A stretch of DNA of 64,000 bases from Dictyostelium discoideum (lineage: Eukaryota), in NCBI GenBank assembly GCA_000004695.1, contig CM000155.2, forward strand, positions 2,304,001-2,368,000, written 5' to 3'. This document shows, in pieces, positions 20,556 through 26,500 of this stretch (position 1 is the first letter of the stretch; every line of letters begins with the position of its first letter). Under the pieces are notes generated by a model that was not told where the DNA came from, did not search any database, and was given only the letters and a program-made list of their open reading frames with translations. The translations under genes and the position numbers were made by a program.

Positions 20556-23500
20556 AAATATTAACTTTTTTTTTTTTTAATAATAATAAAGACTGAACAT
20601 TCAATTATTTTAACAGGTACACCATTACAAAATGATATGAAAGAACTTTGGACAATGTTAAACTTTTTAGATCCAGATAAATTTAATAGTTGTCAAGAAT
20701 TTTTAGATGAATATAGTGATTTGAAAGAAGAGTCACAAGTTTCAAAACTTCATCAATTATTATCACCCTATTTATTAAGAAGAATGAAAGAGGATGTAGA
20801 GTTATCAATTCCAATTAAAGAGGAGACAGTTATACAGGTTGAATTATCATCAACACAAAAAACCTATTATAGAGCCATTTTAGAGAGAAATAGAGAATTT
20901 CTTTCAAGAGGTATTAAACAAAAAACCAATTTACCAAAACTTTCAAATATTATGATTCAAATTAGAAAGGTTTGTAATCATCCATTCTTAATCCCAGGCG
21001 CAGAAGAATCAATAGTTAAACAAGAAAAGATTGCAGGTGATGAGGAATTGGGTGAACTTTTAGTTAAATCAAGTAGTAAATTGGTGTTGGTCGATAAGTT
21101 GCTTCAAAGATTGAAAGCAGAGGGTCATCAAGTGTTAATCTTTAGTCAAATGGTTGAATCTTTGAATATTTTAGAGGACTATTTACAATATCGTGAATAT
21201 ACCTACGAGAGATTGGATGGTTCTATAAAATCAGAAGTTCGTCAAGCTAGTATTGATCGTTTCCAAGATAAAGGTGCCAATAGATTCGTTTTCCTTTTAT
21301 CAACAAGAGCAGGTGGTGTTGGTATCAATTTAACAACAGCCGATACCGTTATTCTTTTCGATAGTGATTGGAATCCACAATCAGATTTACAAGCTCAAGC
21401 TAGATGTCATCGTATTGGTCAAACGAATAATGTTAAAGTTTATCGTCTCATCACTAGAAATACCTATGAAGAGTATTTATTTGAATGTGCTACTAAAAAG
21501 TTATTATTGGATCATATTGTATTAAGTACCAATAAAGATAAGAAACAAACCAATACTACTCCTATTTCTACTACCACTTCATCATCTTCTACTACCACCG
21601 CCTCCTCCTCATCAAATGTTGATTCACCATCACCAGGTGATACACCTTCCAATTCAAATCCATTCAAAGTTTCTGCTGGTGATGCACCATTGGTAGAGGA
21701 CCCAAATACACCAAGTCAAATTAGTCAAATGTTAAAGTATGGTGCTGCTTATCTTTTCGCCGAAACAACTGATGAAGCAAATAAACAAGATAAAATCATG
21801 ATCAATGAAGATATCGATAAGATTTTAGAACGTTCAACCACCATTCAATTTGATGAAAAGAATAGTAAACCTTCAAGTTTATCCGGTTTTTCAAAGGCTA
21901 CATTTGCTTCAAGTGAAACCGATATGAATGTGGATATGAATGATGAAAACTTTTGGGAAAAGGTTTTACCAGACTATAAGACCGTTAAACAACTTGAAGA
22001 AAAACTTGCAAGTGGTTCAGCTCTTCAATCCGAAGAATCTCGTGCCATTTTTGTTCAAGATATTCTAGATTTAGCTCAAACCAAAAAGGATGATGTTGTC
22101 GATAGTGTTTCAATCGAATTTATTGGTGATTTGGTTAAATTGATTATGCGTGTAGAGTTTAATACAAGGTTTACACTTGAAGAACGTGAAAAACTTCAAC
22201 AAACTAAATTACTCTTGGAGAAACCAAGAACTAGAAAACGTGTCATTCCAGAGGTTATTCAAAGTCAACAACATCACCATTCCGATAATAAAAAGAAGAA
22301 ACAATCAAACAATATTCTATTGGCTGATTCCGATAGTAGTAGTGATGGTGGTGGTGGTAGTGATACTGATTTCATCTTACCAGATGATGGTGATTCCTAT
22401 GAATCTGATGATCAACACGTTGAAACATTGGATAATACTGTAAACTCTCTTTCAAACCCACCATTGAAACAAAGAAAAAGTGAAAAGAAATCACAATTCT
22501 CTGGTTCATTGAGTGGTATTGGTGGTCAATCTTCAAATAAATTGGGTGGTGGTAATCAATCTTCATCCAGTGGCGGTGGTAGTAGTGGTCAATCTACAAA
22601 TGCTCAATCGATTATCAATGCCTCTTGGAATAAATCTCAAAAAGATAAATTCAAATCAATTCTACTTAAAGTTGGTTTCCATCGTTGGAAGAAAATTCAA
22701 TCAGAATTGGCAACTCAATCAGTTTTAAAATCACCAGGTGAAATACAATCAGTCTCTGAATCATTCTTGGAGGTTGGTTTAAAACAACAAGGTTCAATCA
22801 TTAAAGATTTTTATGATTCTTTATTGGATGATACTTCAACTTATAATTTCCATAAAATGGGTTTCAATACTGAAAATAAAATCATTCTCAATGATGCATC
22901 CAAATTAAATGCCGCTGCCGCTTCAGCCTCTTCCTCTTCTGATAAACCAACTCCACCTCCAATTAAAAGATTCCACGTTAAGAGAACCTTTAATGCAAAT
23001 GGTTTATTCTGTGCTCAACAATTAACAATTAGATGGAATATTGAAGAACCAAAATCTAATGATAAAGAAACTCAAATAAAAGTTGAAGAAAAGGAAAAAT
23101 CAACTGAATCAAAATCATCATCTAATGACGAAAAAGATGTTTGTGAAAAAGTTGAAAAAGGTGAAAAAGAAATTTCAAGTGATAAGGTTGATGAAAATAA
23201 AGAAAAAGTTGAAAATAATGAAAAGGTTAATGTTGATGAAAAATCCAAAGATAATGAAAAATCTAATGATAGTGAAAAATCAAAAGATAATGAAAAATCT
23301 AAAGATGACGAAAAATCTAAAGATGATGAAAAATCAAAAGATGACGAAAAATCACAAGATGATGAGAAATCTAAAGATGATGAAAAATCTAAGGATGATG
23401 AAAAATCAAAATTAGAAGAGAATCAAGGTGATAAAAAGGAAACTGAAAATGAAAAAGAAAAGAGAAAAAGAGCGAAGAATCTAAATCTGATAAAGATGAA

Positions 23501-26500
23501 TCCACTCCAATGGAAGTTGATAAAGAATCTAAATCTACTTCCTCAAGTGAAAAACAATCTATAGAGATAAAAGAAGAGAAAGAATCTGAAAAGAAACCTC
23601 AAGATAATGATAATGCCACAGAAAATGGAGTTAAATCACCATCTACAACTAATACTGATTCAAAGTTAACTTCACCTTCTACAGCAACCACAACTACTAC
23701 CACTACCACTACAACAACACCTACTACTACTACTGCGACAACAGTTAAACCATTATCATTAAAGAATCCATGTAAAGAATCTGCTTATTATTTAGTAATT
23801 GTAAACGAAGATTTTGGTAGTCAACAAATCCTTAGAACCTATCCAATGAGCGATGTAAATCAAGGCTCTACAGATGTTTGTTTACCAGGTTTTGCAAATA
23901 AATACGAGTTTAGAGTTATTCATTCAAATCCATCCAATAACTCTTTCTCCTTTGTTAGTGAACCACTCAAATTTACATTAACAAGTAATTTAATTTGGCA
24001 TCAAGCTGATTTCCCTTCATTCTCAACTAGAGTTCAAACTGTATTGACTCGTTTAGTTCAAATGAGAGCAATTAAACAATTGGTAACCAAATATGGTAAA
24101 CAATTAACTAATCTCTCCATCCCATACATTTCAAGAGGTCCTATTCCAACATGGACTCAAGAAAATGATAAGAGTTTATTAGTTGGTGTCTATAAACATG
24201 GTTATGGAAAATATCCTGAAATTTTCTTTGATCCTGAATTAGATTTACTCTCAAATGTAAAGAGAGGTCAACCAAATACTTTTTCACCAAATCCAACTAG
24301 TAATAATGATCAAAATAATAATAATAATAATAATAATAGCAATCAAAACAATACTGATAATATTGATAGTGATAGCGGTAATAATAATAATCAAAACTCT
24401 TCAACTAATCAACAACAACAGCAACAGCAATCTGAAAAGATTCCATCATCCGAATCATTAAGAAGAAGAATCCAAAAGGTTACTGATCAAATCTTGAAAA
24501 AAGAACATAGTGATATGATCATGAAACAACATATGGCTCAACAAAAACTACATCAATTACAACTACAACAACAAATGAAAGAACAAAAAGAAAAAGAATT
24601 TCAACAACAACAAAACCAACCAAACCAACAAAATCAACCAGGTCAACAAAATCAACAAACTCAACATGGTCATAGTGGTAGTCATAAACAAAAATACTCA
24701 AATGATTACTTTGACGATTTCGTTAGTAGATCAGATTTTAGTGGTGGTGATATTTCCGATGTGGAAATTGATGATTATATTAAATCAAAGAAAATGAAAC
24801 ATTCTCATAATAGTTCAAATAATAATAGTAATAATAACAATAATAGTAATAGTAATAATAATAATAACAATAATAATAGTAATAATAATAATAACAGTAC
24901 TAGTAATAGTGGCTACAATAGCGGTAATAATAATAACTATAGCAACAATAGTAGTAATAATAATAACAATAACAATAATAATTCATTCTTTGGTAATAAC
25001 AATAGTAATAACAATAACCCATTCTTTGGTAATAATAACAATAATAATAATAAATTACCATCATTAGATAGAATGATAAATAAGAATGATAATAGTTCAC
25101 ATAGACATCATTCATCTTCAAAACACAGTAAAAGTCAATCTTCAAATCAAAGTTCAAAACCATTTAGCAATAGTAGTAGTAGTAGTAGTAATAATAATAA
25201 CAATTATAATAATAATATTAATAATAATAATAACAATAATAACAATAATAATAATAATACAAATAGTAATATATTACAAATTAGATTACAATGGGAAAAT
25301 AGAATTTATCCAATTTCAATACCAATTTCATCAACAATGGAATCATTAAAGAGATTGTTTATTGTTAAAGCTGGTATTCAATCAGTTGTTTCAAATACAG
25401 GTGAAGATGCAAATAATATTCTTAGATTCTATTATGATGGTCAAGTTGTGCCAATGGGTGTTAAAGTTGTTGATTATATTAGAGATGATCCTCGTATTAC
25501 TGCAGTTTGGGAATCTAAATGGAAGACTATTCAAGTTAAAGGTTTTGAATTTGAAAGTGTTTTAATGAATGTTCAAGATGATACATTATTGGAAGATATT
25601 GTCAAGGCATACTTTATCAATTCTCATCCACCTTATGACATAAAGAATCTTAGAATTGAAGTAAATGGTAAAGTATTGCCATTAAACTCTGATATTGGTA
25701 CCAACAAGATTAAAAATGAATCATACCTATTGATTGTTCCATCACAAGATATTATTCGTGTTTTCGTTACACCATCTTGGGGTGCTGAAAAAGAAACCTA
25801 TGCACTTCATAAACAAACAACAATGCTCTCAAAATTAATGGATTCTTTCTTGAAAAAACATTCATTACAACCAAAACAAATCGATTTCTATATACCACGT
25901 TTAAATTGTTCCCTCTCTGGTGATAAAAACCCTTCACAAATGGGTATTGAAAACGAAACAGAGATTACAGCTATCCTTTTATTGGTACGTGTCGATGCAT
26001 CTTACAATGGTACTACAGTTCCTTACTTTTTAAGTACAACCACTTCTTTTGAATCATTATTCCATCGTTTCTGTGAAAAAGTTAAAATTGATAGGAAATC
26101 TACAATTTTCTCTTATGAAGGTAAACGTTTATTAAATGAACAAACTCCTGAAGGTATTTATATGAAACCTCATGCAAGTATTACTGTAATTAATCATGGT
26201 TCTAATAACAATAACAATAATAATAATATTAATAATAATATGATGGGTAGTGGTATTGGATCACCATCAATTTCAACATCACCTCAACAACGTCAACCAA
26301 ATCTTCCATTATCTCCTTCTCATCATCAACAATCACAACAGCATCACCAACAACAACCATTATCTCCACAACGTCAACAAATTCCAAAATCAACACAACA
26401 AAAATCTCATCAACAACATCATCAACAACAACAACAGCAACAACAACAAAATCATCACCATCATCATCAATCACCACAACAACACCAATTACCAAGTATT

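Follow-up and report, generated by a model that had tools for sequence, protein, structure and literature searches.

A reading-frame break in the putative chdC gene of Dictyostelium discoideum very probably reflects a one-base omission in the assembly

Singh et al. (2017) described 119 curator-made introns shorter than 5 bp in 102 Dictyostelium discoideum genes (PMC5282741), and for one of these, the 2-bp tiny intron of clcD (DDB_G0278639), RNA-seq (22 of 23 reads) shows that a base is missing from the reference (PMC5282741). The gene analysed here, putatively chdC, resembles the clcD-type cases in being a conserved multi-domain gene with a one-base frame problem, no splice signals and downstream domains that are sensible only with the frame restored; the missing base of clcD was shown by RNA-seq, whereas that of chdC is predicted from the sequence. 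A second described system, −1 ribosomal frameshifting of the viral gag-pol type, also involves a pair of long overlapping ORFs in which the second is offset by −1; unlike these viral genes, however, chdC is missing both the slippery heptamer and the stimulatory structure. The orthologue of Acytostelium subglobosum, another dictyostelid, shows the same architecture, 40–64% identity in the conserved blocks that flank the break and an identical intron position in the ATPase domain, but its last exon is an uninterrupted single ORF.

ChdC was described by Platt et al. (2013) as carrying a C-terminal SANT/SLIDE and SUMO-like sequence and as lacking a BRK domain (PMC3848188). The architecture of the CHD gene in the window, the whole 64-kb stretch of D. 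discoideum DNA that was analysed, suggests that it is ChdC, of CHD subfamily III (DDB_G0293012). When its two reading frames, termed here frame A (codon starts at pos%3==0) and frame B (pos%3==2), are joined, the window gene shares with ChdC a chromodomain, a SNF2 ATPase, a C-terminal SLIDE-type DNA-binding motif and a SUMO-like sequence, as well as a long C-terminus rich in homopolymers and the absence of a BRK domain. A Pfam search of the window gene gave no match to BRK, a trait of metazoan CHD6-9, and the metazoan matches P0024 and P0059 do carry this domain. The SLIDE and SUMO-like matches in the window fall in frame B only, and the published ChdC description already covers the frame-B domains. 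The parts of the gene are as follows.

17369–20464, + strand: CHD gene exon 1 (ATG to ...KSIK), with an acidic/low-complexity N-terminus, the chromodomain and the first half of the SNF2 ATPase
20465–20591, + strand: genuine intron of 127 nt (GTAAGT...AAAG; ~97% A+T, GC 0.03; an A-run of >50 nt)
20592–23450, + strand: frame A part of the last exon, with the SNF2 C-half, Helicase_C, a conserved post-helicase region and acidic repeats
23234–23411, + strand: 18-nt tandem repeat, 9.9 copies (TGATGAAAAATCTAAAGA), encoding (D/N)(D/E)EKSK in frame A, its words in phase 0
23451–23480, + strand: frame-switch zone, purine-rich, overlapping the AAAAAG period-6 array at 23434–23471
23472–23564, + strand: spurious frame-A tail (A KNLNLIKMNPLQWKLIKNLNLLPQVKNNL, then stop), in which real coding sequence is read out of frame as far as TAG 23562–23564
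23453–26731, + strand: frame B, the same exon continued, with an acidic/Thr-rich linker, SLIDE/HTH_CHD1 (~24053–24250), poly-N/Q tracts and SUMO-like domains

Domain searches placed the chromodomain N-terminal to the SNF2-type ATPase, with Pfam matches in exon 1 to Chromo (E 2e-11) and to positions 1–152 of the SNF2-rel_dom profile (E 9e-36). The real intron splits this profile into 1–152 and 153–289, and Helicase_C follows (E 4e-26, Pfam). Frame A also shows a faint SANT/Myb-like motif at ~22620–22715 that is conserved in the A. subglobosum orthologue; when frame A was searched for SANT, PDB gave no match and Pfam only a faint one to Myb (E 0.057). Frame B matched HTH_CHD1 (27.5 bits against a Pfam cut-off of 27), SLIDE (21.8 against 24.8) and the yeast Chd1 DNA-binding domain, PDB 2xb0 (E 2.9e-6), and further downstream showed SUMO-like (Rad60-SLD/ubiquitin) domains, for example at 26003–26188 and 26510–26713. 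The peptide SDKDESTPMEVDK is part of the frame-B translation, and MNPLQWK of that of the frame-A tail.

Examination of the frames at the junction confirmed the discontinuity inside the CHD gene that a preliminary description had pointed out. Frame A, entered at 20592, has the C-terminal reading ...EKEKRKRAKNLNLIKMNPLQWKLIKNLNLLPQVKNNL and terminates at 23564, as that description stated, with the stop TAG at 23562–23564. Frame B, whose opening reads KRKEKKSEESKSDKDESTPMEVDKESKSTSSSEKQ..., is open from 23453 to 26731 (1092 codons), with its stop at 26729–26731 and the preceding stop at 23450–23452. The existence of this second long frame therefore stands, but its start had been placed at ~23435 and its shift labelled +1, whereas the frame opens at 23453 and is offset by −1 (= +2) from frame A, such that one added base or two skipped bases restore the frame. 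The two frames overlap by 109 nt (23453–23561), and given the off-frame stop frequency of the window (0.091 per codon), 1092 open codons are expected by chance with P ~1e-45. The CHD C-terminal signature was likewise found where it had been reported, about 600 bp on, in that SLIDE/HTH_CHD1 lies 600–800 nt downstream. Among the long overlapping same-strand ORFs of the 64 kb, the chdC pair is the only one that resembles a frame break, the remaining overlaps being nested ORFs or a normal intron, and GAAAAAGAAAAGAGAAAAAGAG, which spans 23451–23472, occurs only once in the window.

Comparison of codon usage in the two frames located the switch. Using a codon log-likelihood for which seven other ORFs of the window served as training set, we found that, per 15 codons, frame A scores between +15 and +19 bits until ~23445 and then −5 to −20, while frame B across the same junction rises from ~−20 or below to between +12 and +17. 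Mean codon log-likelihood ratios were +0.76 for frame A over 20592–23450, +0.56 for frame B and −0.48 for the frame-A tail, which uses the rare codons GCG, CTG, CTA (four times) and GTG. The probability that this tail stays open for 36 codons by chance is 0.03, no counterpart to it was found in the A. subglobosum orthologue, and its ~30 residues are spurious. The recurring words TCTAAA, AAAGATGA and GATAAAGA pass from phase 0 to phase 2 between 23400 and 23477. Insertion of a single base anywhere from 23451 to ~23480 raised the score to +58 to +63 bits, compared to −19 for the unrepaired sequence, a gain of ~80 bits. Thus, the coding frame flips from A to B between ~23451 and 23480, inside the AAAAAG hexamer array, within which TRF reported an indel. 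The A-runs of the switch zone lie at 23452–56, 23458–61 and 23465–69; being 4–5 long, they are unlike the long homopolymers that form the classic context of such errors, a point against an assembly error.

Structural and evolutionary comparisons indicated that both frames belong to one polypeptide. Frames A and B are colinear on the same solved Chd1 chains; for example, on chain 5o9g_W, frame A matches residues 537–846 and frame B residues 1128–1212, and ATPase and SLIDE reside in one chain in every matched solved CHD as well as in the orthologue. The latter, annotated as a hypothetical protein of 2399 aa in A. subglobosum LB1 (XP_012755273.1 / GAM22173.1; P0001), contains Chromo, SNF2, Helicase_C, HTH_CHD1 and Rad60-SLD domains. 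Frame A aligns with its residues 1206–1592 (48% identity, E 2e-113, BLASTP) and frame B with residues 1665–1868, 2005–2337 and 2322–2397. The last exon of the A. subglobosum gene, at 3675–8405 of its locus, lies within one open frame of 1585 codons and encodes ATPase lobe 2 and all that follows, up to the C-terminus, without interruption, and the intron that precedes it interrupts the same codon (KSI[K/R]|TEHS) as the window intron at 20465–20591. In A. subglobosum the conserved blocks are joined by a P/Q/T/S-rich linker of 72 aa, whereas that of the window gene is ~250 aa and acidic, and because of these differences in length and composition the junction is not alignable residue by residue. 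Both frames are one exon of one gene, which most likely encodes a single ~3078-aa protein.

We consider it very probable that one base is missing from the assembled sequence, an error type documented in this genome. This reading is preferred because of the frame geometry, the switch in coding signal, the single polypeptide in relatives, the lack of an intron, the tiny-intron precedent, the published protein and the local sequence quality. The assembly would lack one base (equivalently, it would hold two extra) within 23451–23480, in the AAAAAG-like hexamers, and the true gene would read through as ...TENEKEKxKKSEESKSDKDESTPMEVDK... to give the ~3078-aa protein. As to which base is missing, we would guess at the A4 run 23458–23461, where an added base would restore the hexamer period. 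We infer that the error arose in base calling or assembly and that the sequenced strain itself does not carry the mutation. On the whole, the evidence points to a missing base and not to new biology.

The alternative that survives best, although unlikely and less likely than an assembly error, is that the DNA of the sequenced strain truly lacks the base, so that its ChdC is truncated after the acidic repeats and is without the SLIDE and SUMO-like domains. Numerous lineage-specific changes are found in axenic laboratory strains (PMC2643946), and truncated ChdC might still keep function. By sequence, a recent true deletion and a sequencing error are indistinguishable, as in either case frame B stays open and its codon usage good; under a true frameshift, frame B would still be intact because the mutation was recent. 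The standard sequenced D. discoideum strain develops normally. In contrast, loss of chdC causes a fully penetrant arrest at the mound stage (PMC3848188), which argues against a true frameshift. The base rate also favours reference errors, given the 119 patched sites that have been documented.

Far less probable is removal of the junction by an intron that is short or unconventional and has a length of 2 mod 3. Formally, 469 GT..AG combinations have the right phase, including a 35-nt example at 23428–23462, but none has a GTA donor, GTA(A/T)GT being the donor type of the real introns of the window. Taking the intron at 20465–20591 as the internal standard for intron character, the candidates look exonic: all are 66–76% A+T with exon-like codon structure, and the zone of frame overlap is 70% A+T, compared to 95–98% in the two real introns (20465–20591 and 5129–5221; GTAAGT donor). 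In addition, the coding signal of frame A is strong until ~23450, and the orthologous exon in A. subglobosum is without an intron. On this point, the absence of a visible GT…AG intron, the preliminary description holds.

That description had also left an assembly indel at an A-run, a genuine frameshift and a programmed event as unranked options, and our analysis favours the first. Programmed recoding, whether by −1 ribosomal frameshifting or by slippage of the polymerase in the A-runs, would yield from one mRNA a short ATPase-only protein and a long SLIDE/SUMO-like one, and both the geometry, which is compatible with a −1 shift, and the A-rich site are in its favour. Against it, no slippery heptamer of the form X XXY YYZ was found in any phase from 23440 to 23561, and the A-runs at the junction are only 4–5 nt, with ~100 like them in the gene (58 A4, 36 A5 and 4 A6 runs in the same exon). 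The downstream 99 nt folds with a minimum free energy of −14.8 kcal/mol (z = −1.44), a value equalled by 19 of 200 shuffled sequences, and recoding is unneeded in the A. subglobosum orthologue. We therefore regard recoding as most improbable; equally doubtful is its broader form, in which a break present in DNA and mRNA would be bridged by unconventional −1 recoding or transcript slippage on a short purine tract to give a regulated mix of ATPase-only and full-length ChdC. Least credible of all are two genes, an ATPase-only CHD ending at 23564 and a downstream SLIDE/SUMO-like gene starting at the frame-B ATG at 23510, since no AT-rich intergenic spacer is present (GC 0.30 across the junction compared to 0.09–0.15 in the 3′ intergenic region), frame B codes well 5′ of this ATG, from ~23474, and ATPase and SLIDE share one chain in all matched solved CHDs and in the orthologue.

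The main value of a base missing from the assembly, the explanation we favour, lies in annotation hygiene. Mechanical translation of the locus produces a CHD ATPase that is without its DNA-binding and SUMO-like domains and carries a spurious 30-residue tail, together with an orphan ORF. The correction belongs in the reference itself, not in a patch to the gene model. If the break were real, the standard laboratory strain would have a truncated essential developmental remodeler, or recoding without canonical signals, and either would be worth follow-up.

Several searches for an independent record of the locus were negative. Exact-product look-ups of both ORFs found no record, and word-index protein searches gave no matches with either the SLIDE region or the joined A+B query, the latter being swamped by low-complexity words. 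Metagenome scans, with protein and with a DNA pattern allowing a variable gap across the junction, revealed no independent copy of the locus, and a literature search found no relevant corrected long-read D. discoideum reference.

Comparison with the published tiny introns placed chdC at ~2.3 Mb on chromosome 6 by a rough calibration of gene IDs to coordinates, a position at which Table S1 has no 2-bp entry; its chromosome 6 2-bp entries are at 1114705, 1231301 and 2858949 (PMC5282741). The entry at 1231301 was considered as the chdC site and rejected because the neighbouring 1-bp entry would then lie within exon 1, which is intact. A 3-bp "in-frame stop" site from the published list was also sought in the window as an anchor, but the candidates were the normal intron 5129–5221, an (ATT)n tract and antisense/degenerate sequence. 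Just 5′ of chdC, the assembly contains a 100-N gap at 16575–16674 and a single N at 17335.

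The coding sequence of the CHD remodeler gene, probably ChdC (DDB_G0293012) by its architecture, changes frame in its last exon, where the frame that carries the helicase closes and a second, overlapping frame continues to the 3' end. The layout of the gene in this window, which has a G+C of 25%, is as follows.

17369 (ATG) to 20464, plus strand: exon 1, encoding the chromodomain and the first half of the SNF2 ATPase
20465 to 20591, plus strand: intron of 127 nt with a GTAAGT donor, about 97% A+T
20592 to the TAG at 23562-23564, plus strand: frame A (codon starts at positions divisible by three)
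After the last stop at 23450-23452 to 26729-26731, plus strand: frame B (remainder two, that is, frame A minus one), open for 1092 codons

Frames A and B overlap by 109 nt (23453-23561), forming the sole ORF junction of this kind within the 64 kb window. Because off-frame stops occur here at a frequency of 0.091 per codon, the 1092 open codons of frame B cannot be chance (P ~1e-45). The preliminary description had reported this break correctly, since all the peptide strings that it quoted are found in the window and its purine string occurs once, at 23451-23472. Its start of the second frame, ~23435, is corrected here to 23453, and the frame that it labelled +1 is −1 (or +2) relative to frame A.

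Codon log-likelihoods, trained on seven long ORFs elsewhere in the window and scored in 15-codon windows, revealed an abrupt change of coding signal. Frame A scored +15 to +19 bits until ~23445 and −5 to −20 thereafter, while across the same 30 nt frame B, initially at about −20 or below, rose to +12 to +17. Past 23472, the frame-A tail contains codons uncommon in the window (GCG, CTG, four CTA and GTG) and averaged −0.48 bits per codon, whereas frame B averaged +0.56 and the remainder of frame A +0.76. Similarly, the DNA words of the acidic repeat, TCTAAA, AAAGATGA and GATAAAGA, lie in phase 0 as far as 23400, and those from 23477 onward in phase 2. Inserting one base, whichever it is, anywhere in 23451-~23480 gave +58 to +63 bits over 23400-23610, compared to −19 for unrepaired frame A. 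The switch can thus be localised to about 30 nt and not to a single base. Tandem Repeats Finder described 23434-23471 as an AAAAAG period-6 array with an indel; extending the A4 at 23458-23461 to A5 would bring back the hexamer period (...ENEKEKEKKSEESK...), which is offered as a suggestion only.

Domain content and orthology indicate that frames A and B are the two halves of one protein. In Pfam searches, frame A matched SNF2 (profile positions 153-289) and Helicase_C, and frame B gave weak but specific matches to SLIDE and HTH_CHD1, together with Rad60-SLD/ubiquitin-like domains. Among solved structures, both frames matched the same yeast Chd1 chain, 5o9g_W, colinearly within one polypeptide (frame A at residues 537-846, E 1e-91; frame B at residues 1128-1212), and frame B also matched the isolated Chd1 DNA-binding domain 2xb0 (E 2.9e-6). 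When the frame-B SLIDE region was used as a HMMER query against all 1.84 billion representatives, a single strong match emerged, the 2399-aa Acytostelium subglobosum LB1 protein XP_012755273.1 (E 1.3e-42, 47% identity), which carries Chromo, SNF2, Helicase_C, HTH_CHD1 and Rad60-SLD in a single chain. Frame A (21699-23042) aligned with residues 1206-1592 of this orthologue (48% identity, E 2e-113) and frame B, from 23786, with residues 1665-1868, 2005-2337 and 2322-2397; the frame-A tail had no match anywhere in it. Between the two dictyostelids, conservation within the C-terminal half is highest in the SUMO-like (Rad60-SLD/ubiquitin) domains at 25250-26728, with 50-64% identity versus 40% for the SLIDE region; Pfam matched three Rad60-SLD stretches in the orthologue versus two in the window gene.

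At the A. subglobosum locus, residues 823-2399 are encoded on one exon (3675-8405) inside a 1585-codon open frame, preceded by a 72-nt intron (3603-3674) at the same codon as intron 20465-20591, KSI[K/R]|TEHS. Thus, the orthologue has the same exon structure, with neither break nor intron where the window shifts frame. The position of this SNF2-splitting intron is identical despite a genome G+C of 25% here and 50% in A. subglobosum. The conserved blocks are separated by a linker of 72 aa in the orthologue and of about 250 aa, acidic and Thr-rich, in the window gene; since the two linkers are not alignable, the comparison does not identify the exact missing base.

We propose that the assembled sequence most likely lacks one base somewhere in 23451-23480, which would make a single last exon of ~6.1 kb look like two overlapping ORFs. 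With that base restored, the predicted product is ~3078 aa long (1032 + 2046 codons, by arithmetic from the coordinates). A base missing from the assembly is very probably the best explanation of the break, in agreement with the assembly indel offered in the preliminary description. The break would then be biologically ordinary, its worth lying in annotation correction.

ChdC is the largest Dictyostelium CHD, rich in homopolymer tracts, with SANT/SLIDE motifs at its C-terminus and a SUMO-like sequence and without a BRK domain (Platt et al. 2013, PMC3848188). Since the SLIDE and SUMO-like matches of the window gene occur in frame B only, the protein model in use already appears to span the break. 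The dideoxy-sequenced D. discoideum reference retains 226 gaps, and dictyBase models include 119 introns <5 bp across 102 genes, viewed as curator constructs offsetting genome-sequence errors; for example, a 2-bp "intron" in clcD reflects a base missing from the reference (22/23 RNA-seq reads) (Singh et al. 2017, PMC5282741). Chromosome 6 has three 2-bp cases in their Table S1, with no 2-bp entry near 2.3 Mb, where rough gene-ID/coordinate calibration (their Table S2) places DDB_G0293012.

A true frameshift of recent origin in the sequenced strain, which sequence analysis cannot distinguish from a sequencing error, is improbable given the fully penetrant mound arrest of chdC-null cells (PMC3848188) and the frequency of reference errors on record. 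Recoding, an odd intron and two genes are, even jointly, less probable still. Although the frame geometry would fit programmed −1 frameshifting or slippage, the X XXY YYZ heptamer is absent in every phase, the junction A-runs (4-5 nt) resemble 98 others in the same exon, and the predicted structure of the 99 downstream nucleotides is no more stable than that of shuffled sequences (z = −1.44), so the programmed event also offered earlier lacks both heptamer and fold signal. An intron removing the junction could use any of 469 GT..AG pairs that have the right phase and preserve the open frame, but a GTA donor is absent from every one of them and their A+T content is 66-76%, consistent with the earlier statement that no intron is visible. 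Moreover, G+C across the junction is 0.30, whereas the real intron of the gene has 0.03 and the 3' intergenic DNA 0.09-0.15; the other real intron of the window, at 5129-5221 in the ABCG gene, likewise has a GTAAGT donor and is 95% A+T. Two separate genes are argued against by the lack of an AT-rich spacer between the frames, by frame B already coding 5' of its first ATG (23510) and by domain logic.

Several other features of the window were observed. Intron 20465-20591 includes an A-run of >50 nt. A 100-N assembly gap (16575-16674) lies within a long poly(A) tract ~700 nt 5' of the CHD gene ATG, and a lone N at 17335 lies 34 nt upstream of that ATG; both are signs of unfinished sequence near the gene. 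An apparent in-frame TAA (5150-5152) in the ABCG/PDR-type transporter gene (4328-7642) was rejected as a stop because it lies in a canonical 93-nt intron (5129-5221, GTAAGT...TAAG), a multiple of three in length. Related minus-strand stretches at 38100-38700 and 41400-42009, with the common motifs TT[PT]DSDGN[PL]IFDNLLAGD and IEEGN[IT]PPILDMILK, are broken by several stop codons and resemble degenerate fragments of paralogous genes, or pseudogenes. The window also contains the following.

36655 to 36736, plus strand: tRNA Ser-AGA
42108 to 42240: long intergenic (ATT)n microsatellite, ~45 copies
43716 to 43798, minus strand: tRNA Ser-GCT
61116 to 61187, plus strand: tRNA Glu-CTC

Because tRNA Glu-CTC lies within the 5' end of a mechanically listed 502-aa ORF (61088-62596), the real start of that ORF is probably further downstream.
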